Both the position numbers and the translations under genes were made by a program. From positions 1-64,000 of the forward strand of contig JAPEUG010000008.1 in the NCBI GenBank assembly GCA_026025795.1: a DNA stretch of 64,000 nucleotides, written 5' to 3'. The notes below the pieces were generated by a model. That model worked only from the letters and a program-made list of their open reading frames with translations. It did no database searches and was not told where the DNA came from. Each line of letters begins with the position of its first letter. The first letter of the stretch is position 1. Origin of the DNA: Thelocarpon superellum (lineage: Eukaryota). Shown here one piece after another: positions 1-12,163 of this stretch.

Positions 1-564
1 CTGGAGGCACACGGACCATTCCGGCCGTCGCGCATGCACGGCTGCGGTCGTGGCCCGCGAAGCCGCCTTTGCACGCGTGGTGGGGCGATCGCTCCAGAGT
101 ACGCAGGGCCAGATTAAGCCCGCCTATGACTACTGCGGGTGGTGTGGATGGCTGATGGTACCTGGACCACATGGCAAGCTCGCCAACGCCGAGGAATTTC
201 TTGGGTTCTAGTAATTAGCCAGCGAAATCTGTCAACTAGACTGAATTCTGTCTGTCAGGCATGTCCGGGTCACAGGCGAGCAAGGAAGACGGGTTCATCC
301 ACAGCATCTTTTGCTTGCTCCAAGGTACAACCAGGAGTTCACGACCTGATACCGCTTGGAATGCTGCTAGAGATGCGCGGTTGAAGGGTAGCATCGCCGG
401 GGCCCACCTTAGCTGGTGCGCGTACTAGTCCTCGGAGCACGGGAACATGACCAAGCGCTTGCAAGGATTACCACGTTCTTGCACGGTACCTACTAGTGCT
501 GGTAGCGGAATAAATTACCATTTTTTACGTAAGTGTATTAAACGTGTTTAATATGACACCAAAT

Positions 565-741
565 TGTCATGGTTCCGCAACGATCGTCACGTCTGTGACG
601 TTCTTTTAGGGCTAAGGTTGTTGTGTATTTGTCTGATTGATTGATTCTAGCTACGTGGGGAATCCTGCGATACGTATGGTATGTGGTGTACCACGTGACT
701 GAATGAGTCACGTGACGTCATTGACGCCATACGTTGTGACA
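565..741 (-). repeat. 3' LTR of the Ty3/Gypsy element
   Basis: TGTCATGG...TGTGACA; matches 8753-8929 except at 9 positions. Confidence 0.97.
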
Positions 742-840
742 GTGCCCACAACAAGAGGAAAAGGGTGCAGCCCTCTGCGCCATCGGGAGCGCCCACGTTC
801 CAACCTCCGCCTCCGTATCAACAGCCAACCTCGTGAGTCT

Positions 841-976
841 GTCGTACCCGCGCGTCGGGTATTCGCCTGGTTGTCGTCGTACCCGTGCGTCGGGTATTCG
901 CCTGGTTGTCGTCGTACCCGCGCGTTGGGTATTCGCCTGGTTGTTGTCGTACCCGCGCGTCGGGTATTCGCCTGGT
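841..976. repeat. Tandem array of ~3.9 x 35-bp units, each with an internal palindrome TACCCG-N5-CGGGTA
   Basis: Unit GTCGTACCCGCGCGTCGGGTATTCGCCTGGTTGTC starts at 841, 876, 911 and 946; the only variants are C>T at CpG. Confidence 0.95.
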
Positions 977-982
977 ATCGAG

Positions 983-1963
983 CTAAAGGACGTTGAAGTC
1001 CATCTTAACCTTCTTGCGTGGGGCGTTGGGGTTGTGCTTGTAATGGTTCGCTTTGACGATGAGGGCTTCGATTGTGGTATCGAGCGTGTCTTTTGTGAAC
1101 AGGTCGTCTTCGTTGTCAACCGTCAGCCGAGCGAGCGAAAGGACAAGCTCTCGCCCTCCAGGCGACAACCACTTCCCAGTGTCATTAAAGGCACACTGGG
1201 CCACAATTGTCACCTCCCATCTAATGCGCTCCTTCTTCCAATTTTTCAGCAAGACGTTCGCGTCGTCAAGCACCTTGTCGAGCTCGTCACATGCGTCGGA
1301 CTCTGTCAAATGTCGCCAGATGATCGCCTCGTCGGTCGTGATCTTATACCCTTCGCTCACCAGTACAGCTTTGACCAGCTTGTTGTTAGAATCGAAGGAC
1401 GATGCTGCCCAGTACACTGGGCAGTTGCTGATGAAGTCAGTGCCATCGATCGTCGTGCCGACAATGACATGGATTTCTGGGTTTGGCGGCGATTGCGATG
1501 GTCCATCTTTCGACAGGGACAGGCTCGACGTTGACGTAATTTGGACCTGGAACTGTGGTGGCATGTTTGATGTGAAGTAGGCTTTAGTTGCATCAGCTTC
1601 ATTGTCGTCGTCGTCGTCATTGTCGTCGTCCGCATGACGTTTCTCAGCTGATCCCTCGTCCGTGTCCTGGATGACGATGGGAGTGCCGGCGACAGGCGCG
1701 TTGACGGTGACAGCGGGAGTAGATGGTTTGTTGATTGCTGGGGCGTTTGAGGAAGTGCCAGTGGTGGGCGGATTGACCGCTGTGGGGGCAACGTTATCTG
1801 TCAGGATATTGACTGCTGCCCATCCTGGATTGGCCATGGCGTGGATTGTTTTGCAGTCGGGACACGCCTGGAAGTGACGGTTGATCTGGTTGAAGATGCT
1901 GTGGCAGTTGGCACAGATAATCGTCCCTGGGTCGCCTGGCATGTGCTTCGCTCGCTTTCCCAT
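983..1963 (-). CDS. Extra ORF inside the retrotransposon, 326-aa protein of unknown function (Cys/His Zn-finger-like motif, acidic tract, putative NLS)
   Basis: Uninterrupted ATG-to-TAG ORF between the pol stop and the 3' LTR, on the same strand as pol; CANC-x9-H-x3-CPDC motif; DDDNDDDDDNE tract; C-terminal PRKKVK. Confidence 0.7.
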   Translation of the reverse strand: MGKRAKHMPGDPGTIICANCHSIFNQINRHFQACPDCKTIHAMANPGWAAVNILTDNVAPTAVNPPTTGTSSNAPAINKPSTPAVTVNAPVAGTPIVIQDTDEGSAEKRHADDDNDDDDDNEADATKAYFTSNMPPQFQVQITSTSSLSLSKDGPSQSPPNPEIHVIVGTTIDGTDFISNCPVYWAASSFDSNNKLVKAVLVSEGYKITTDEAIIWRHLTESDACDELDKVLDDANVLLKNWKKERIRWEVTIVAQCAFNDTGKWLSPGGRELVLSLARLTVDNEDDLFTKDTLDTTIEALIVKANHYKHNPNAPRKKVKMDFNVL

Positions 1964-2274
1964 GACGATGAAGTGAGCTGAAGCTGAAAGCGTGGGACGA
2001 CAGTCACAAGTGAGGTGAAGCTGAAGTGAGCTGAAGCTGAACGAAGATTGTGAGCTTTATCGCTGTGCGACAACAGTCGCAAGTGAGCTGAACGTGCTGA
2101 TTGATCCCAGGTGGCGCTGTGAAGCGCACAAGCCGGGTGGTGTAGGAAGAAGGAAGGAAGAGAGCTTGTGGGAATGGAAGAAGTGGGCTATAGGCAGCCG
2201 TTGCGAGAGAAAAATGCAGGAGGCGGGTGATAGGTGAATGATGCCAAGCGAGCGAAGAGGTGAATATTCTTAAC

Positions 2275-5200
2275 TCAGGAGCCGGTTGTTGACTTCGATT
2301 GTTCGAAGTCCTCAATCGCCTTGGTCGCTGTTGATAGGTCTTTGACGTTGTACCACGTATCGAATTCCAGGCTGTAGCCTTTCCATCGAACGAGGTAGGA
2401 CGTCATCAGTCCTCGTCCTTGTCGAGACGTTCTCTTGTCGAGGATTTGTTCGATTTTGTAACTGTCGTCGCCTCCGTCTTCCATTTCGACAGCAGGAGGG
2501 TGAGATGGTCGCTTGCGATCAAATGGGTTGTCAGCGGGGTTTGTTGCTGGCTCCAGGCTGGCGATGCTTATGACTGGATGGACTCGCCAGTGGGGAGGAA
2601 GATCTAGTCGATACGCTAGTCGTCCCACCTTTTCGATGACCTTGAACGGCCTGGCGAATTGTTGTGACGTCTTCGGGTGTTTGACACTTGGGAGCGAATA
2701 TCCCTTGTGGAGTCGTAGATTGACGTAGTCGCCAGCTTTGAGAAACATCGCTGTGTGGCGACAGTTGTAGTGATGCTTTGCCTCGAGTGACGCGAACGCC
2801 AGGGCGTCTCTGATGTCCTGGTGGCGCGTTTTTGCTTCGTCCGGCTGCTGGTTGCTCCAAGTGTCAAGAAGTGTCAGAGGATTCGCGGGCCTGAAGCCAT
2901 AAACCACTTCGTTTGGTGTCTTGCCAGTTGTGTTGATGTTCACAGCGTTGTTGAGCGTAGACTGGAGATGTGGTAACAGCGTTGGCCAGGCGGTTTTGTC
3001 GTCTACTGCAGCGAAGAGATATTGTAGTGCAATCTCTGTTGTTTGATTCGTCTGCTCCGATTGGCTGTCTGTCTGTGGGTGGTAGGCTGTCGAGTAGAGC
3101 AGGGAGATGCCCGCCTTGTTGAATATCGTCTGCCACATGTTGCTCAGGAACTTAGGGTCCTGGTCAGACAATATTACCAACGGCAGGCCCCAATCGGCTG
3201 TTGCGAGGCGATCGTACATTAGCGAAGCCCAGTCACTGGCGCTGTATGTTGTCTTGCCTGCGATGAACAAGACTCTCTTCGAGTATTTGTCAGTGACCAA
3301 CATGACGCAGTCATACCCTTCAATCAACGTTGGAAGAGCGAGGATGTAGTCGATTGTCATGGTTTGGAACAGCTGCGACAGCGTGTATATGGGTTGTAAG
3401 GACCCATACAGACAGTGTCGTGGCGTTTTCATCATTTGGCATTGAGGGCAATGCCTTATGAACTCCGTTAGGTGTTTGGAGAGTCGATGGATGTAGAGGG
3501 ATTGGATGATGGCCTCATGAGTCCTGTGATATCCTGGGTGACTGGCGACGTTGTGGGCAAGGTGGAAGACATCTGCCACACAGCTTTTCGGGATGCAGAG
3601 GCGGTGTCGACTGTTGTCACCATCAGTGTGGAAGAGTAGATCTTCCTTCTTGCTGAATGGGAGATCAGCGGTGTTTTTGCCTAGGGCGTCGTTGCTGCTG
3701 ACGATGCTGAGGACGCGTGTCCAGTGTGGCTCTGCTTGGTAGCTGTCGACAAGACACTTTTTGAACTCGTCGTTCATCTTGACAAGTGTTGTGCAATAGA
3801 TGTGGGCCAAGAGGTCTTCCAAGGTGTTGTCGTTTGTCGTTGGCGCAGTGTTCTGCTCACGGCTTGCCAGGCAGGAGAGAGTGTCTGGGACAGCGTTTTC
3901 TTTGCCAGGCTTATGCCTGATGTTGAGGTTAAAGCACTGGAGGTATTCGGATGCCTGGACGAGACAGAGATTCAGCTTGTCAGTCGAGGACATTGATAGC
4001 GACATGCTGCGAGCGATGGACATCGTTGCGGAGTGATTGGTATAGATGATTGCTGGGCATTTGCAAGCTTCCAGGACATGTCTGATCTTCTTGACAGTCC
4101 AAACAAGCACTGCGACCTCAAGCTCGGTAGGCCAGTATTGTGTCTCAGTAGACAACAGCATCTTGCTGAGGAACAAGATTGGTTGAACTAACGTCTGGGG
4201 GGGAGGTGACTCGCTGGCTGGATACTTGCTGTCGTTGACGTGATACAGCATGGCACCAAATCCAAATGCCTTGGAAGTGTCGAGGTCGCAGAATAATTGT
4301 CGCTTGGGGTTGTGGTGAACAAGGATCAATGGCCTTGTGAACAATGACTGGAGATGATTAAATGTGTCCAGCTCCTGCGTTGTTGGGTTATTGACATCGA
4401 TGTGCTTGGTTGCACATCGTCAAGCGCCCTTATTCTTGTCTCGAACAGCCTGACCAAGCAATGTCTTGCATTCTTGAAGTGGCTTGACTATCGCTGTGTA
4501 GTATGGGATATACTGACACAGGTATCCTGTTATCCCTAGGTAGGACTCAAGCGCAGCAAGCATATAGGGAAATTGCAGTTGAGCGATCGCTTGCAGCTTG
4601 TTGTCAGCAGTTGACAGGCCTAGGGCATCAACCTGTTGGCTGAGGAGCTGTACTGAAGGATAGCTGATGAATGACTTCAAGGCGCTTAGGGAGATGCTGA
4701 ACTCAGTGAGAGCTGTTATCACTTGTTGTAGGTGATCTTTGTGCTCTCCAGCAGACAACAAGTGGATGACGATGTTGTCAATGTAGGCTCACACGAATTG
4801 TTGGAAGGGGTGTAGCACATTATCGATTTGTTGTTGGACATACAACAGAGAGTTTCGAAAGCCCATGACTGCAATGTTGAACACTTCTTGTCCTTGGTGT
4901 GAGACAACTGTGAGGCGATGGCAGTGCTTGGTTCTCACACACCATTGGTAGAAGAACGACACGCAGTCGACAGTTGAGATGTATTTTGCACCTTGTACCA
5001 AAGCGATGATGTCTTCCTGTGATAGAACTGGGTAGATGTCAGGCACTGTGATCTTATTCAGGGCGTGTATGTCAACAACGACTTGTCCCTTTCAGGTGCT
5101 GTTGACATTTCTCCACACCACGAAGCAGGGGAAAGAGAAGGGGGTACTCTCTGTCAACCACGATAGTTGTCCTTGTGCATGGAGCTTGTCGAATTCCCTG

Positions 5201-8200
5201 TCGACTTGATTGTGGTCTGCAGGTCCCAGGGGGTATACCTTGGCTGCACCTGGGCGATATGTCTCACGCCAGTTGTTGTAGAGAGGAATCGTCATCCAGT
5301 CCTCTTCAGGGATGTTCGCTGTGGTGTTGTAGTTGTCCTAGAGAGATAGGAAGTCATACACGACACTGGCGAATCTGGGGACATCTGTTGTTGTGTCATC
5401 GCTGTAGATTGTGACACTGTTGTCAAGCGTTGTTTGGAGGGAGGGCGATACAGTTGTTATGAACACGAGGCCAAGCACTGCCTTCTTGACAATTCCCCTT
5501 GATGAGGTTCGTGCCATCTCATGGAGATGGGGTGACACAAGGTAGCAGCTGTCTGTGTTGTATTCTGCGAGGGAGCCAAGCTTTGTGTGGCGACGAAGCG
5601 TGATAGGTTTGTTGTTGCTGTTAGCCACTTGCACATGGGACATATTGCAGTCCACGACATGTGTGTAGACAGCGACGTTGGCAATGTCCTTGAGCGACGT
5701 CGGCTCAAACAGGAGGTCTTGGTTGTCTGGAAGATGAGTGGGTCAGTTGACCTTGATCGTCACGACCGAGTTAGCAGCAATCTTGATGTCTTCTGAGGCA
5801 GAGATGTTATGGTGAAGCCTATTGTTCAACTTGGCTGTGATCTCGACTAGGACGACAAGCTTCTTGCAGCTATTGACGATGGCTGTTTGCGATGGTGTGT
5901 TGATGGTGATCCCTTCTGGCCTGAGTATGTCCACACCCATGAGCATCTTGGCTTGGAGGTCGTCGACAAGATGAAGTTCTCAATGGAGGACTGCTGTGGC
6001 TTGTGAACTGTCTGGAAGCTTCCTGTTGAGATGAATGTCGACTGTCGCATATTCTGACATATTGTGATGATTGGTGCTGATGCCTTGAACAGCAATTGGC
6101 GAGGGAGTGCAGAGTATGACAATGGAATGGTCTTGATCCTTGAGCCACTTGTGATCAACAAGCGACATGCTACATCCTGTGTCGATGCAGATTGGTTCTG
6201 CCTTGTTGGTATGGTTGATGGATGCCATTGCAGTGACATAGTGCTATGCGCAGAAGCTGTAGCTGTGACCCTGAAGGTCAGCGGTGTTGGATCAGACAAC
6301 TACAGGAGCAGGCTGATGGTCTGTGTCAGTGATTGGGGCAACAAGGGAAGACTTGACCTTGGTGTCAATAGCCTTGCACGATTTCGCACAGAGGTGCTGA
6401 TGGAGTGCGTTGTTCAATTGAAATGTCTCACAACATTGACAACAGCTGATTTGTTTGATGCTTACAACGTGGTTGGCATCAACTGTCAGTGGACCATACT
6501 CTTCTTCCTGATCAGGCTGATAGGGCTCATCCTGCTTGTCATTGTGAGCCTGAGGATCAGGATGCTGCTGGAAGTCGATGGGCTTGTCATAGGGCATCAT
6601 GTCTTGCTGAGACATTTCACAATTTCCAGTGTTGTTGTATGGCACAACAGTGTCTGGTCGATAGTGGACAGAGTCGTCGTTCCCTGAGGCGTGATAGGCT
6701 TGTTGAGGACAGTTTGAGCCACAGAAGCAGCTCAACAAAGCATACATGCCTCTCAACAGGTGTTAATCATTCATCAGGCGCCAATCGTTTCCCAACATGA
6801 TTTGGAGAGGCACTTGAGGTGCAGGTAGCTGCGCCTGTTCGCTCGTCTGATATTGTTGACAATTAGCACCAGTCCTGTTGCTGCCTGTCCATGGTTCCTA
6901 CAACAACAACAAGGACTGCTGTCCTTGGTAGGACTGGAAAGGAGACGACCACTGGCCAGGCTGTTGCTGCCCTTGGTACAACAAGGAAGGAAACGACTGC
7001 TGGCTGTACTGCTGCTGTCCCTGGAAGGACGATGGAGAAGAACGATACTGAAAGGGTTGATAGGAGGGCCTATCCTGGAACTGCATGCGTCCTCTGCAGG
7101 GATCATACTGGGACTGACCTTGCTGTATCATCTGGCAAGGGCGAAAGTCGGTCTGGTATCGATTGCCATAGCTTGTTGCCTGTCAACTGTAGATGTCGAA
7201 CCAGATGTCCTTACGCTTGTTGACTTCCTCGATGAAGTCAGCAATCGTCGAGTGTTTGTTGGGCACATGGAGGTCGTGTCATAGCTCGCCATCCATGTGC
7301 TGATAAGCACTCATGACTTGGGTGTAGTCAGATGTCGCTGTTCCAGCGTTACACCTGTGGGTTATGATGGCTTGGATGAAGTCGCTTGGGTCACGCTGGA
7401 GGCGGGTGTCGTTAATCGTGTACCTGGCTCACTCGAGGGCAGTGAGCGACTTCGCTGGGGGATCACAGAAGCGTTGTTCAAGTGCCTTACACCATTCCTC
7501 TACTCTGTTGGTGTCCGCTTGTAGGCCAACACAACAGACATGATCGAGCTCCTCAGTGTACCACTTGTCTGCCTTGCCAAGGAGGCAAGTGTCGATATTC
7601 TGTTGAATGACAGTGGGGTCCATCGTTGTTGCCTTAATGCAGAGACGATTGGTGAAGCTGAAGACATTTTGATATGTCTGGTCGCAATCTTTGACAAGGA
7701 CGTCGTTGTGGGCGTCTGGCTTTGGATCAAAGTAGCCAATGTCCTTGGCTCTGAACACTGGCTGACCACCAGCTATCGTCTCGCTGTTGAGCCCTGGGGG
7801 TCCTGGTGGACCTGGTGGTCTGCAGGGTCCTTCATGGTTAACGCCTGCCAAGGCGTCATTGACAGCTCGATTGACAGTGTTGTTAACTGCAGAATCCATC
7901 ATGGCTTGAAACTGAGCCATGACTTCTGGGGTCATACCCCTGTTGTTCAGCATGGCGTCGTTCGTTGGAGAAGGCTGCGTTACCAGGGGAGGCTGCGAGA
8001 ATCCTCTGTGACATCATACAGGCTGAGGGGTGAAGCTGCTTGACAGCTCAGCCGTGGAGGGTCGCAGGACCTCTTGTGTTGTGGCCGACGACAGCGAGGA
8101 CGATGGTGGCTCTGTGGAGGTCTGGCGGGTGATAAGAGCCTGAAGAGACTCAGTTTGGTCCTTGAATCGTTGTAAGGCTTTGGCGAATTCCGAACGCTTG

Positions 8201-8412
8201 TCGGGCGTCACGTCAACTGGGAGCTTCGTCCAGGATGTCGGTGGTGGAGGCTCACAGGTGCGAGTGTTGTACACCTCTCGCACGAATCGAATCCGATCTA
8301 AGAGCTGTTGCTCGACGTTCCTGTTGCCGCTCAGAAGGAAGTTGTAAAGCTGATGCCTGAGGGTGATGATGCCTCTGGACAGTGGAGGAAGGGAGGTGTT
8401 GGCTGTTGTCAT
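2275..8412 (-). pseudogene. gag-pol polyprotein pseudogene (Gag, aspartic protease, RT, RNase H, integrase, chromodomain)
   Basis: All fragments (8014-8430, 7429-7953, 6898-7131, 6292-6756, 5980-6228, 5743-5946, 5338-5655, 5092-5295, 4789-5046, 4420-4761, 2275-4344) lie in one frame. Motifs: DIGYFDP (gag), CIDTGC (protease), AYIDNIVI (mutated YIDD), YWPTELEV (RNase H), H..HPG..CPQC and YHPQTDSQSE (integrase), YLVRWKGY (chromodomain). Confidence 0.95.
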
Positions 8413-8740
8413 AAGGGAGTAGAACGACAACGACGATCACAGGATGGTGTAACGCCAACGCTTACACTGGAGCGTAAGACTGCCTAATGGCGATGACAGG
8501 AGGAGGAGCGAGAGACAGGAGCGACACTGATCAAGCACAGACAAGCTTGACAATGAAGGGTGTCGGATGAGGAGGAGGAGATGATTGATGACAAGGATGA
8601 AGGTAAGGAGGGAGGTTGGGTGAAGCCAGAGGACTAGGATGGAGGTGTGGTTGGCTACACTTGACATGAGAGCCTGGTGATCGTTTGACAACAATCTGGT
8701 GCTTGCTGCAACGTGGATGGTTACAGCAGCTGGTTCAGGG

Positions 8741-8751
8741 TGTTGCTACCA
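8741..8751 (-). promoter_or_regulatory. Primer-binding site, probably for initiator tRNA-Met
   Basis: Minus strand reads TGGTAGCAACA starting 1 nt after the 5' LTR; TGGTAGC is how Ty1/Ty3 tRNAiMet PBSs begin. Confidence 0.65.
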
Positions 8752-8752
8752 T

Positions 8753-8929
8753 TGTCATGGTTCTGCAACGATTGTCACGTCTGTGACGTTCTTTTAGGGC
8801 TAAGGTTGTTGTGTATTTGTCTGATTGATTGATTCTAGCTATGTGGGGAATCCTGTGATATGTATGGTACATGGTGTACCACATGACTGAATGAGTCACG
8901 TGACGTCATTGACGCCATACATTGTGACA
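8753..8929 (-). repeat. 5' LTR of the Ty3/Gypsy element
   Basis: 177 bp, TG...CA, adjacent to the PBS and to TSD CAAAT. Confidence 0.97.
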
Positions 8930-9415
8930 CAAATAGTAAAAAACCCTATACAAAATATTCCCCATACAAAATGTATGGGGAATATTTAATTTGATATTTA
9001 TTGATATTTAGTCTTGATTTTTGGATTGACTATGGTGATAGGCAGGAATCGAACCATAGATGCTATAGAATAGAGTAGGATATCTTACTGTTGCACCATG
9101 TGGCTGCTGAGATCACATGTGGCTCAATGGAGGAACCATATTGCAGCAGAAGTAGCTCACTCTGTATTGACAGTGGGCCCTGAATTGCTAGGCCTACTAC
9201 TATCAGCACCTGTTCTACAATTTTTATATCAGAAACAACAACTCAGGAGCAGCTTGTAAGAGGTCTTGTATTGCTAGCTAGTTGTATAGTCTAGTCTAGT
9301 TGTCAGCGCTTCCTGGTGCAGCCAGAAGCTTGTAGTAGACCCCCCCCCTCCTCCTGTTCCAACTCAATCAACAAGCTGGTGAGAGAGTCAGAGAGCTGAG
9401 TCTCTTGCTGTTGAC

Positions 9416-11462
9416 TCAGCTTGTAGTAAGAAGGCTTAGAAGAGCCTTCTTGATCAGCTGCAGTCTCCTATGGCAAGCTGCCACAGGAGACTGTGTCAGA
9501 CCCCCCCCCCCCACCCCCCCTGATCCACCCAATTGCTGCTGTAGCCACATCCCCCTCTTCCAATTCATCCTCAGCTGCCACTCCACCTGCAACCATTGCC
9601 TTATCCTCAAGGTCCAGTATATCCACAGTTGTAAGGTCATTGAATCAAATAGGTGTATCACACCAGGGTCCAAGCACTTGGTTGTTTGTATAGATATACT
9701 AGAGCATATCCACACACTTTGTATCTAGGCTATTCCAAAGCTTTGTATAGGTGAGGTTCTGTGTCAAAAAGGCACACTCCGAAGGCACCAAGTTCACCAG
9801 TGTTTTGATTAGTCATATGGCAAGGTGAGCCAGTGCAGGTGTCTGGCTCCAGCACATCTGCTAGAACAGCCAGGGCTTCTACTGGTCTTTCCAGCAGTTG
9901 GAGTCTGTACAGAAGGTGTCCTCCTGGTACTGGAAGGAGAGGAACTAGCCTCAGATATCATTGTATTGGTCAGGATCCACATATTGCTAGAAGATGTCAA
10001 GCACTTGGTTTTGTTGCTTCAAGTCAAGAGGTTGTGATATCAAGGCTGGATCCATAGCATAGGCAGCCTAGTAGAGAGGTTGGACCTGCTTCTTGAATTG
10101 AAGAGGCTACAAGGAATCCAGGAATTGACAGAGGTGAGGCTAGAGGACAATGCTCAACCAGTTGACTGTTGTCTAGAGGTGTTCCTCAATTGACAGCCAG
10201 CAAGGAACAACATTGTGGAGATAGGCTTGTTCACCTTTAGAGCAGACCTATGCAATGTGGATGGGGTGGAGGATGACCTGCAAGTCATCCAATATGCCCT
10301 AGAACAGTGGATCAACAATTGTTGAGTGCATGATGTTGTTGATCTTTGACACAGGATCTACAGCAAAGTCCTTCAACACCTGGCGATTCTTGTTAAGGCT
10401 CTTGATCATCTGTATCTGCAAGCCCCAACAAGTGACAACAGAAGCTAGTAGCGCTTGTTGTTTTCTATAGAGGAGGACCTGCTTCTTGCAAAGAAGCTTG
10501 TATTGCTGTAGGGTGTAGTAGAGGGTAGCAACTATCACAGAGGCACAGTAGTGGATCGAACAGAGGAAGGGGAGTTCTAGAAGATCTTTAATTAGCAGCT
10601 ACAACCTATAGCTATCACAGGGAACAAAGAAGATGTAATGTAGATCCTTGCAAGATCTGAGCAATCTCCAGATCTTCCACATAAGGCCACATGTATCTGT
10701 AGCCATTGAATTGACTTGATCAAGTCTCCTGTTTGTAATGTGTTGTAGTTTGTTGTGAAGCCACAAGGCATAGTTGGTTGTGTCTATCTTCTTTGCACTG
10801 ATTGCCTCTGATTTCAGGTAGTAGACTCTGCCTGGTGTATGCAGGCAGAGGTTGACAATCTGTTGGAAGTGGACATTGGTCGACTTGTCTATAACAAAGT
10901 TGAGTAGGTCCACTGTCTGGATGTGCTTGTCAACTCACAGCTTTGTCTTGTTGTAGCATTGATCTAGGAGTCATGTTGAAAGTGTGTGCTGGTCTGGAGG
11001 GTTGTAAGCTGCATTGAGGGCTGTCAAGAAGGTCTGCATGCTGGGCTTGTGATATAGGGCAAAGGGGCATGCACCACAGTAGACAGCTATTGCTACAAGA
11101 CAATCCAGACACTGTTTTGTGGTAGGGGAAATCAATTGAACCACTAGGCATGGCTGTTGTCCCATAGTATGCACTGCTTCCTCTGTAATGTCATTCTGTA
11201 CCTCCTTCTGGGCCATTGCTTGGAGGTAGGCACCACAGCTCTCTAGGTGATGTTGTTGACAATCTGTATTCTAAGCCAGCGAATAGGGGCAGAATTTGCA
11301 TTTGATGCACAAGCACTATTTCACCTGATTAGTGTACTGTAACAGGGCTCAGGAAGACCTCACCTTATCACTAGGAACTTGTAGGATAACTGAGAATTTG
11401 TTAGAGACATCAGTTGTGTGTGGACAGCCCATAGTGGCTTGGAATATTATAGGAATAGTCAT
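9416..11462 (-). pseudogene. hAT transposase pseudogene
   Basis: BED-finger remnant IKCKFCPY...HHLESC (~11230-11310); DUF659-like FVIDKSTN...IVNL (10599-10913); dimerisation-domain remnant LIKTLVNLVPSECAF (~9760-9815, resembling ANSVPSERAF); many stops. Boundaries approximate. Confidence 0.85.
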
Positions 11463-11989
11463 GGTGTTGAGGTCAGGAAGCTTGCTGCTTCAACCCAAGC
11501 ATAAGAGCCTAACCATAAGTAGTAACTGACTAGCCAAATAGAGCTAGATATCACATGATCTTGGCCAAGTAAAATACTGCTAAAATAGGTTTATTACTAC
11601 ACTAGTGGTTTAATACCACAGGCCCGAGTAAATTACGGTAATTTACCAGCACTAGTACCTACATTTGACGTTCGGCCATCCCGAGCAAGGACTCTGCCGC
11701 TAGACAGCACTGGCGAACCTGCCGGATCAGTCAAGCGTTCAGCACCAAGGGCCTGCAAGCATCTTGCGTTCGGACAGACCGACCGTCGAGCTCCCAGCAT
11801 GAGTTCCCTGCCAAGGGTCGATGAGAGTTGAGTACAAGTTCTTGGACAAGGACCACCGATGAAGGATGAGATAACGAAAAGTAGACAAGCTGGTTTGGGT
11901 TAGAGGTACGTGTACTCAGAAGTTGGGGAGACGACGGACGAGTAGAGATGGATCAGGCAAAGATGGCGCCGCTGTGCCGCGCCCCCCTT

Positions 11990-12163
11990 TGTCACGATGT
12001 ATGACGTCAATGACGTCACGTGACGTCAGTCACGTGGTACACCACGTACCATACATATCGCAGAATTCCCCACGTAGCTAGAATCAAGCAATCAGACAAA
12101 TACACAAGGACATTAGCCCTAAAAGAACGTCACAGACGTGACGATCGTTGCGGAGCCATGACA
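11990..12163 (+). mobile_element. Solo LTR of the same Ty3/Gypsy family, opposite orientation to the full-length copy
   Basis: TGTCACG...CCATGACA is the reverse complement of the LTRs at 565 and 8753 with some divergence; 5-bp TSD CCCTT at 11985-11989 and 12164-12168. Confidence 0.95.

Follow-up and report, generated by a model that had tools for sequence, protein, structure and literature searches.

Accessory open reading frames (aORFs) of Ty3/gypsy retrotransposons, for example those of the plant Tat/Ogre elements, are lineage-specific and lie between pol and the 3′ LTR, together with a variable 3′ UTR that carries tandem repeats. The gene analyzed here, ORF326, is similarly located inside a transposed unit, after pol and beside tandem repeats. 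It differs from the plant aORFs in its fungal host, in having no Pfam relative, and in lying on the sense strand behind a CT-rich spacer of its own.

In fungi, the Boty-like (BcGypsy1) elements of Botrytis cinerea carry an extra antisense gene, brtn (PMC8365987, citing Zhao et al. 2011). They share with our locus the presence of a gene beyond gag-pol in a gypsy element of the Pezizomycotina; brtn is described as antisense, whereas ORF326 is sense. An initial sequence-only reading of this DNA had stated that fungal chromoviruses normally encode only gag-pol. This is roughly right, with exceptions such as brtn. In our literature search, we found no account of a fungal chromovirus with an ORF after pol on the sense strand.

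Three other systems are relevant. The VANC proteins are anti-silencing proteins of the Arabidopsis VANDAL (Mutator-like) transposons (PMC5735166). Like ORF326, they are encoded by a transposable element, are not transposition proteins, and are found beside short tandem motifs in the non-coding DNA of the element; they belong to another class of element, have no sequence similarity to ORF326, and have their motifs in many non-coding regions rather than in a single array. The CERV protein of the C. elegans element Cer1 is an LTR-retrotransposon accessory protein that acts in the nucleus on the RNA of its own element (PMC10309623). No similarity to it was found, and an RNA role for ORF326 would be purely conjectural. 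Finally, replication of LTR retrotransposons is known to leave tandem repeats in their 3′ UTR as a by-product (PMC7004042). The array described below resembles those hypervariable repeats in being a short tandem array just upstream of the 3′ LTR, and differs in being small (3.9 units of 35 bp) and in a fungal chromovirus, the published arrays being from plants.

The insertion and its CpG hypermutation

The window is the whole 64-kb stretch of DNA that was analyzed. The best explanation, which we consider probable as a whole, is that the locus is one 8,365-bp Ty3/chromovirus LTR retrotransposon inserted on the minus strand of a Pezizomycotina-type fungal genome, and that ORF326 is a lineage-specific accessory gene of this chromovirus. 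The transposed unit spans positions 565–8929 and includes both ORF326 and the 35-bp array. It is bounded by a target-site duplication, CAAAT, read from the sequence at 560–564 and 8930–8934. The empty site was found in contigs of sequencing run X1, which join 559 to 8930 with five letters fitting either side. X1 is a DNA run with a region share of 0.92 that may be from the source sample; two further runs of the same study contain almost none of the region, and no RNA run was listed as containing it.

The 3′ LTR (565–741, minus strand) is 177 bp long, has TG..CA ends and a CpG observed/expected ratio of 1.39, and is 94.9% identical to the 5′ LTR (8753–8929, minus strand). All nine differences between the LTRs are at CpG sites and, with a solo LTR as the outgroup, they are mostly derived in the 5′ LTR, which carries 6 to 8 of them. 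One base past the 5′ LTR begins a putative primer-binding site (TGGTAGCAACACCCTGAA, 8734–8751, minus strand; PBS-like TGGTAGCAAC...), assigned from the LTR alignment. On the other side of the element, a spacer (742–840, minus strand) separates the array from the 3′ LTR, with a purine run, GGAGGCGGAGG, at 804–814. As read from the sequence, no polypurine tract lies directly at the 3′ LTR, the closest run of purines being some 60 nt upstream; the lack of an adjoining tract would be unusual in an element able to replicate. A contig from a second copy covers approximately 754–874 and has three substitutions and one 3-nt insertion in this region.

The chromovirus assignment agrees with the TG..CA ends and short target-site duplication and with the domain order of pol (RT-RNaseH-integrase-chromodomain). 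The C-terminal part of pol is an intact ORF of 689 aa (2275–4344, minus strand), in which Pfam detects RT_RNaseH, Integrase_H2C2 (a zinc finger), rve, SH3_Tf2-1, and Chromo. Related polyproteins carry PF00078 upstream of these domains. Here, the upstream gag, protease, and RT part (4345–8430, minus strand) continues in the same frame with 14 in-frame stops and no frameshift, and gag-pol aligns to a 1962-aa relative (P0005) as a single HSP in one frame, from 8391 to 2296.

The 14 stops (10 TGA, 3 TAG, and 1 TAA) are all found within 8016–4422, and the probability that none would fall in the last 2142 nt is 0.0025. The CpG observed/expected ratio follows the same division, with values of about 1.0–1.4 over 500–3000 and 0.4–0.65 over 4000–8000. 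Outside the element, the block abutting the 5′ LTR (8930–11989) is nearly CpG-free (0.03–0.2), the host DNA from 12164 on is at about 1.0, and the left flank is normal (0.97). Moreover, 921 of 1000 variant places between copies in the X1 contigs are transitions. Transitions in CpG context, the lack of indels, and the repeated nature of the DNA make up the signature of RIP-like or methylation-driven CpG hypermutation. The internal stops of gag-pol arose by CpG-to-TpG hypermutation, and the 3′ third of the element was wholly spared. A CpG-to-TpG/CpA process, either RIP-like or methylation-driven, would have struck the 5′ two-thirds and left the 3′ 3.8 kb, that is the integrase-chromodomain region, ORF326, the array, and the 3′ LTR.

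The sequence-only reading had counted at least 10 stops in gag-pol, in line with our 14, and had argued from the fact that ORF326 stayed open while these accumulated. This argument does not hold, because the stops are regional and the 689-aa pol ORF is equally intact, with 12 CGA codons remaining against only 3 in ORF326; even a uniform spread of the 14 stops would leave ORF326 untouched with a probability of 0.13. The survival of ORF326 in an otherwise dead copy is probably explained by its region and not by copy-specific selection.

ORF326, its homologue and its copies

The ORF map places the 326-aa frame at 983–1963 (minus strand), between the pol stop at 2275 and the 3′ LTR, as had been claimed; it begins at the first ATG following a stop. 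Other features noted earlier can be read in the translation: a zinc motif near the N-terminus (C17-x2-C20-x9-H30-x3-C34-x2-C37), a Pro/Thr/Ala linker, an acidic stretch rich in D and N at approximately residues 112–122, and PRKKVK at residues 315–320. The description of the protein as not env-like also stands, the highest Kyte-Doolittle mean over 19 residues being 0.95, with no TM-like segment. A conserved C-terminal block covers about residues 239–303.

ORF326 is a real coding sequence belonging to the mobile unit. None of 2000 shuffles of 742–2274 gave an ORF of at least 326 aa (median 93, maximum 240). Its GC content at codon positions 1, 2, and 3 is 0.535, 0.422, and 0.664, with a GC3 > GC1 > GC2 periodicity; the values for pol are 0.519, 0.406, and 0.626, and GC3 in five host ORFs ranges from 0.66 to 0.82.

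Upstream, a 311-bp spacer (1964–2274, minus strand) separates the pol stop from the ATG of ORF326. This spacer is pyrimidine (CT)-rich on the sense strand, has short direct repeats (a 16-bp unit present 2.1 times at 2008–2041), and is a candidate internal promoter or leader. ORF326 could be expressed separately, either from this spacer or via a subgenomic RNA. Its message would end in the 3′ LTR, which would place the array in its 3′ UTR.

The homology and structure searches suggested in the sequence-only reading gave one distant homologue, P0004, but no match in Pfam or the PDB and no fold of good confidence. P0004 is a 324-aa protein of another ascomycete, Piccolia ochrophora, with 36% identity over residues 239–302 of ORF326 (pairwise E 4e-13, library-wide E 7e-4); in the alignment, C17, C20, H30, and C34 do not vary. 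It is annotated as a 'hypothetical protein', forms a single-member cluster, is found on a 190-kb contig, and may be an ordinary host gene. The library-wide search of 1.84 billion representatives returned four matches, the query, P0004, P0002, and P0003. On pairwise inspection, the last two were found to be driven by repeats and were dismissed. The family thus appears to have one other detectable member among the 1.84 billion representatives. In word-indexed protein searches, ORF326 and P0004 each found nothing but the query, and no other protein of the same genome matched ORF326 in the protein searches. Similarly, no metagenome contig matched the ORF326 alignment or the C-terminus of pol, and no viral contig was found.

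For the fold, no Pfam family reached the cut-off with ORF326 (best HypA, E 0.099) or with P0004. When the two-sequence alignment was used as a profile against the PDB, the sole matches were antibody light chains (E 0.2 or worse). The ESM Atlas gave nothing usable by features, and all structure rows had a TM of 0.28 or less. AlphaFold2 models were of low confidence, with a pLDDT of 35.4 for the full protein and 42.1 for residues 157–326 modeled with the homologue, and any domain assignment for ORF326 is therefore weak.

We also compared 120 related polyproteins with ORF326 and P0004 and found no similarity (best E 0.08, for ORF326). Several of these polyproteins are on contigs too short for a 1.5-kb module, for example one of 2067 aa on 6,749 bp. 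The module is therefore not shared across the clade and may have been captured recently.

The same sample contains at least one additional copy of ORF326, whose differences are mostly synonymous. The window copy is the sole full-length copy read, the others being short contigs of the single run X1. A second-copy contig at single-copy depth (110.9) covers 1433–1541 with nine differences from the window copy, of which seven are synonymous and two are not (V166I and S156P). The probability of at least seven synonymous changes out of nine under neutrality is 0.002 to 0.013, for a small sample of 109 nt. For dN/dS across copies, put forward earlier as a check, the data are a 7:2 ratio in 109 nt of one second copy, and ORF326 shows signs of purifying selection. 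Another contig of low depth (5.7) covers 1376–1599 and 1760–1906 and is approximately 13–15% divergent; it has 145 nt in place of the 160-nt linker, a difference of 15 that keeps the frame. Judged as an aORF, ORF326 is thus inside a unit bounded by a target-site duplication and occurs in variant contigs at depths of 110.9 and 5.7, both fragments from X1. Summed contig depth is 180–245 in the ORF bins, roughly double the 103.9 of the window's own contig, and similar in the pol bins (184–436).

One second-copy contig links 1433 to 4236 on opposite strands, and this copy may be rearranged. No second copy of ORF326 was found by tblastn within the 64-kb window. Matches in runs X2 and X3 were confined to a GAC/GTC low-complexity stretch near 1591–1631 and were not accepted as homology.

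The 35-bp array and alternative readings

The array (841–976, minus strand) has 3.9 copies of a 35-bp unit with 95% matches and starts 6 bp past the ORF326 stop, close to the four copies of the sequence-only reading. The three differences between units are all CpG to TpG. Each unit contains TACCCG-N5-CGGGTA, an inverted repeat with 6-bp arms, of a kind seen in 910 of 20000 shuffled units (4.6%). The hairpin proposed for the unit is no stabler than shuffles: for a single unit as RNA the value is −8.5 kcal/mol (z = −1.1), which 30 of 200 shuffles equal or surpass. As DNA, the whole array has a z of −4.47, a value expected from the tandem repetition of a self-complementary unit. Most simply, the array would be a replication-generated tandem repeat of the kind that accumulates in the 3′ UTRs of LTR elements. 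The proposal that ORF326 and the array form a protein-plus-cognate-motif system fared poorly. In the 64-kb window, the sub-motifs of the array are found only in the array (4/4 matches are array units, with up to 3 and 2 mismatches allowed), and the protein has no Pfam similarity, VANC included. The coupling of ORF326 to the array is unsupported.

The origin of the gene is open to another reading, which we regard as unlikely: a chromovirus lineage would have acquired ORF326 from a fungal host, as an intronless retrocopy or by transduction, and the gene would sit between pol and the 3′ LTR as a functionless passenger. P0004, the only homologue, would fit this origin as a single-member 'hypothetical protein' from a 190-kb ascomycete contig, as would the related polyproteins that have no similar domain, many of them on contigs lacking room for the module. 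The promoter-like CT-rich region upstream and the missing polypurine tract next to the LTR point the same way. However, the codon-position GC of ORF326 fits pol rather than most host ORFs, the ORF region is at about the same summed depth as pol, and the differences between copies are mostly synonymous, which suggests that constraint acted once the gene had joined the element. That ORF326 is a chance or decayed frame without function, open merely because it lies in the part spared by hypermutation, we find scarcely credible. The regional sparing is real, there are just three CGA codons, and neither a confident fold nor a family match was obtained; yet the shuffles never reach its length, the codon periodicity and the 7:2 ratio are those of a gene, and P0004 is a conserved homologue of the same length and architecture.

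Two further readings accept ORF326 as a gene and give it a function on the 35-bp units. As an RNA helper of the Rev/RRE or Cer1-CERV type, it would bind the repeated stem-loops in the 3′ UTR and help the unspliced genomic RNA to be exported, stabilized, or packaged. The array is indeed on the sense strand, in a 3′ UTR common to the genomic RNA and to any ORF326 message, the NLS-like basic ends and zinc motif are compatible with such a role, and LTR-element accessory proteins of this kind exist, for example CERV (PMC10309623). With the weak unit hairpin, no Rfam match over 500–9100, and no family showing homology, CERV and Rev included, we judge this role quite improbable. As a VANC-like anti-silencing protein, ORF326 would instead bind the units as DNA and locally block CpG methylation or hypermutation of its own element; it would then be the founder of a new retrotransposon-encoded family of sequence-specific nucleic-acid-binding proteins that shields the element in cis. 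We hold both this activity and the founding of such a family to be highly improbable. If true, the CpG-preservation gradient, highest at the array end, would be the footprint of ORF326, which would be a fungal LTR-element counterpart of plant VANC. CpGs are best preserved nearest the array and ORF326 and drop with distance, the 3′ LTR retained the CpGs of which the 5′ LTR lost 6 to 8, the protein combines a zinc motif with NLS-like ends, and VANC targets are short motifs in tandem (PMC5735166). The same gradient is equally explained by spread from the CpG-free 8930–11989 block or by patchy RIP, however, and the left flank outside the element is also CpG-normal. Three CpGs within the array itself are mutated, and the gag-pol of the window copy was inactivated regardless. 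In addition, the motifs are confined to one array instead of recurring across non-coding regions, the unit hairpin does not exceed shuffled sequence in stability, and neither Pfam nor the PDB profile search relates ORF326 to a known family.

Under the preferred explanation of a lineage-specific accessory gene, the product of ORF326 is predicted to assist the element in the nucleus and to bind zinc and nucleic acid. The features that suggest this role are basic residues at both termini, the C2HC-C motif, an acidic linker read as disordered, and a C-terminal domain read as helical.

Significance for fungal retroelements

The sharp regional gradient of CpG hypermutation within one insertion bears on the way in which defence of a RIP-like or methylation-driven kind spreads in this fungus. 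A further lesson is one of caution, as one ORF being open while others are dead should not be taken as evidence of selection. The accessory genes of LTR retrotransposons are poorly understood, and few have been described in fungi. ORF326 is a clean case, being on the sense strand after pol, in an insertion bounded by a target-site duplication, and with signs of purifying selection. If functional, it could point to a novel means by which fungal retroelements deal with their own RNA or with the genome defence of the host.

Structure of the element and its insertion site

The Ty3/chromovirus element occupies positions 565–8929 on the minus strand and is bounded by two 177-bp direct repeats with TG..CA ends, the 3′ LTR at 565–741 and the 5′ LTR at 8753–8929 (94.9% identity), as well as by copies of CAAAT on both sides (560–564 and 8930–8934). 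X1 is the only public sequencing run containing the DNA of the window (share of words, 0.92). In two X1 contigs, position 559 is joined directly to 8930, with five letters that fit either side, which is the empty site; 565–8929 is therefore a single inserted unit that includes the accessory ORF326 and the neighboring repeat array. At 494–564 and 8930–8991, the combined depth of these two contigs was 216, against about 104–126 for the filled copy, and loose contig ends were found at 494, 565, 8953, and 8991, which points to a repeated insertion site or else to polymorphism or heterozygosity of the insertion within the sample. On the sense strand, TGGTAGCAACACCCTGAA, located one base past the 5′ LTR, may be a primer-binding site. 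An odd feature is the lack of a polypurine tract next to the 3′ LTR (742–840): the sense strand there reads ...CCCTTTTCCTCTTGTTGTGGGCAC up to the boundary and TGTCAC beyond it, and the nearest purine run, GGAGGCGGAGG (804–814, minus strand), lies ~60 nt off.

The block abutting the 5′ LTR (8930–11989) is almost CpG-free (observed/expected 0.03–0.2), with TpG and CpA raised, and carries a stop-to-stop ORF (10599–10934, minus strand) with a weak, sub-threshold match (E 6.8e-5) to DUF659, a domain associated with hAT transposases. The block probably represents the remains of an old, hypermutated DNA transposon, and the chromovirus would have inserted into it or next to it. The boundary of this CpG-dead block with normal host DNA is marked by a solo LTR of the chromovirus family (11990–12163; 91.5% and 89.8% identity to the two LTRs), which is oriented opposite to the element and has AAGGG on both sides, presumably a 5-bp target duplication of its own. 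The neighboring host ORFs encode Fungal_trans, Fung_rhodopsin, MFS, biotin carboxylase, and carboxyl transferase domains; the host is thus a fungus and, judging from these families, most likely a member of the Pezizomycotina.

Regional hypermutation

The gag-pol region aligns with a 1962-aa relative as a single HSP in one frame, and its damage consists of point mutations only, without frameshift. At least 10 stops had been proposed; there are 14 internal stops in frame, 10 of which are TGA. At 7281 and 4791, the stop is TGA in the window copy and CAA in other X1 copies, the pattern that an ancestral CGA would give if it was mutated on a different strand in each. All nine differences between the LTRs fall at CpG; taking the solo LTR as the outgroup places 6 to 8 of the changes in the 5′ LTR and one in the 3′ LTR. 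Transitions account for 921 of 1000 variant places between the X1 copies. CpG is hit in any context (CCG, TCG, ACG, GCG), in a graded manner within the one insertion (565–8929), whereas classical Neurospora RIP follows a CpA-to-TpA pattern.

Mutation is strongly regional along the window. The CpG observed/expected ratio is 0.03–0.09 at 9000–11500, 0.38–0.70 at 4000–8000, and 0.99–1.44 at 500–3000, and is about 1.0 in host DNA from 12164 on. All 14 stops lie between 8016 and 4422. The final 2142 nt of pol contain none (P = 0.0025 under a uniform distribution) and form an intact 689-aa ORF keeping 12 CGA codons. The sequence-only reading noted that ORF326 stayed open while gag-pol gained stops. 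Position explains this: ORF326 is open in this copy because it lies in the spared region. It has only three CGA codons, and its escape from stops has P = 0.13 even under a uniform model. The evidence for selection is the comparison between copies.

ORF326 as a gene and its relatives

All the features listed in the sequence-only reading are present: pol stops at 2275, with RNaseH, integrase, SH3, and chromo domains upstream (Pfam), and is followed by the 326-aa ORF (983–1963, minus strand), which has an N-terminal C17-x2-C20-x9-H30-x3-C34-x2-C37 motif, a linker, an acidic run, PRKKVK, and no TM-like segment (highest Kyte-Doolittle mean, 0.95). Four lines of evidence indicate that ORF326 is a gene. 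No ORF of at least 326 aa arose in 2000 shuffles of 742–2274. GC content across codon positions 1, 2, and 3 (0.535/0.422/0.664) shows a coding periodicity close to that of the intact part of pol (0.519/0.406/0.626).

Other copies of the element are known from short contigs of one run, X1, possibly the source sample. A second version of 1433–1541, at single-copy depth (110.9 versus 103.9 for the window's own contig), shows nine differences, five of them outside CpG context; seven are synonymous and two are not (V166I, S156P). Under neutrality, at least seven of nine synonymous has P = 0.002, or 0.013 counting transitions only. A low-depth contig (5.7) spans 1376–1599 and 1760–1906 at about 13–15% divergence, with 145 nt in place of the 160-nt linker, a difference of five codons. 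Summed contig depth, which is not copy number, was similar in the ORF326 bins (180–245) and pol bins (184–436). One X1 contig at depth 110.9 links 1433, in the ORF326 region, to 4236, in pol, on opposite strands, which suggests that a second element copy may be internally inverted.

An exhaustive search of 1.84 billion protein representatives found four proteins: the query, two repeat artefacts, which were rejected as homologues, and P0004, a 324-aa hypothetical protein from a Piccolia ochrophora MAG (leotiomyceta incertae sedis). P0004 is thus nearly equal in length and shows 36% identity to ORF326 over 64 residues (pairwise E 4e-13). Both share WK-x-[ED]-R-[IL]-RWE ... VA-x-x-AF ... KW-x-x-PG-x-RELVL, and the N-terminal Cys/His spacing is the same in the two, with C17, C20, H30, C34, and P35 invariant. 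No Pfam family scored above cut-off for either protein, the PDB profile and ESM Atlas searches gave no usable match, and two AlphaFold2 runs were not usable (pLDDT 35 and 42). Oddly, the protein database searches returned no further match from the same genome. A set of 120 related polyproteins from chromoviruses (median length, 2032 aa; at most 52% identity to the pol part) contained nothing resembling ORF326. Several of these lie on contigs with <1.3 kb beyond the polyprotein ORF, which suggests that the module is not shared throughout the clade, although this is weak evidence, as contigs may be cut.

The array and competing explanations

The array (3.9 × 35 bp, 841–976) lies 6 bp from the ORF326 stop, as described. 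Its units differ at three places, all CpG to TpG, and it was therefore homogeneous at insertion. The hairpin is a modest one: each unit has 6-bp arms, and an inverted repeat of this kind occurs in 4.6% of shuffled units. The unit RNA fold does not surpass shuffled sequence (z = -1.1, with 30 of 200 shuffles folding at least as well). We regard an RNA-level helper as improbable. The proposed analogy with the VANC anti-silencing proteins of Arabidopsis VANDAL transposons is very improbable in our estimate. Array-centred protection is one reading of the CpG gradient; spread from the almost CpG-free block at the 5′ LTR, or patchy RIP, fits at least as well. VANC targets occur at high density in several non-coding parts of an element (PMC5735166), whereas both array sub-motifs are confined to the four array units within the 64-kb window. 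For plants, LTR-element replication is described as generating tandem repeats in the 3′ UTR, immediately before the 3′ LTR (PMC7004042).

A captured host gene is unlikely, though to be kept in view: GC3 exceeds that of ORF326 in four of five host ORFs (0.70–0.82) and is 0.663 in the fifth. That ORF326 is non-functional is hardly credible beside the excess of synonymous differences. In the literature searched, of which coverage was partial, we found no report of a fungal chromovirus with an ORF behind pol on the sense strand; fungal gypsy elements with extra ORFs are known, as with brtn in Botrytis (PMC8365987).

From the pol stop to the ORF326 ATG (2274–1964), the sense strand is rich in pyrimidines and contains a CT-rich tract and short direct repeats, including a 16-bp unit (×2.1, 2008–2041) and two similar 23-nt CTCACTTG[CT]GACTGT... 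stretches. Core promoters of filamentous fungi typically have CT-rich tracts. We consider it probable that ORF326 is a genuine accessory gene belonging to the element family. It would be expressed independently, from a message ending in the 3′ LTR, and its product may be a nuclear zinc-binding protein that acts on RNA or DNA of the element itself.
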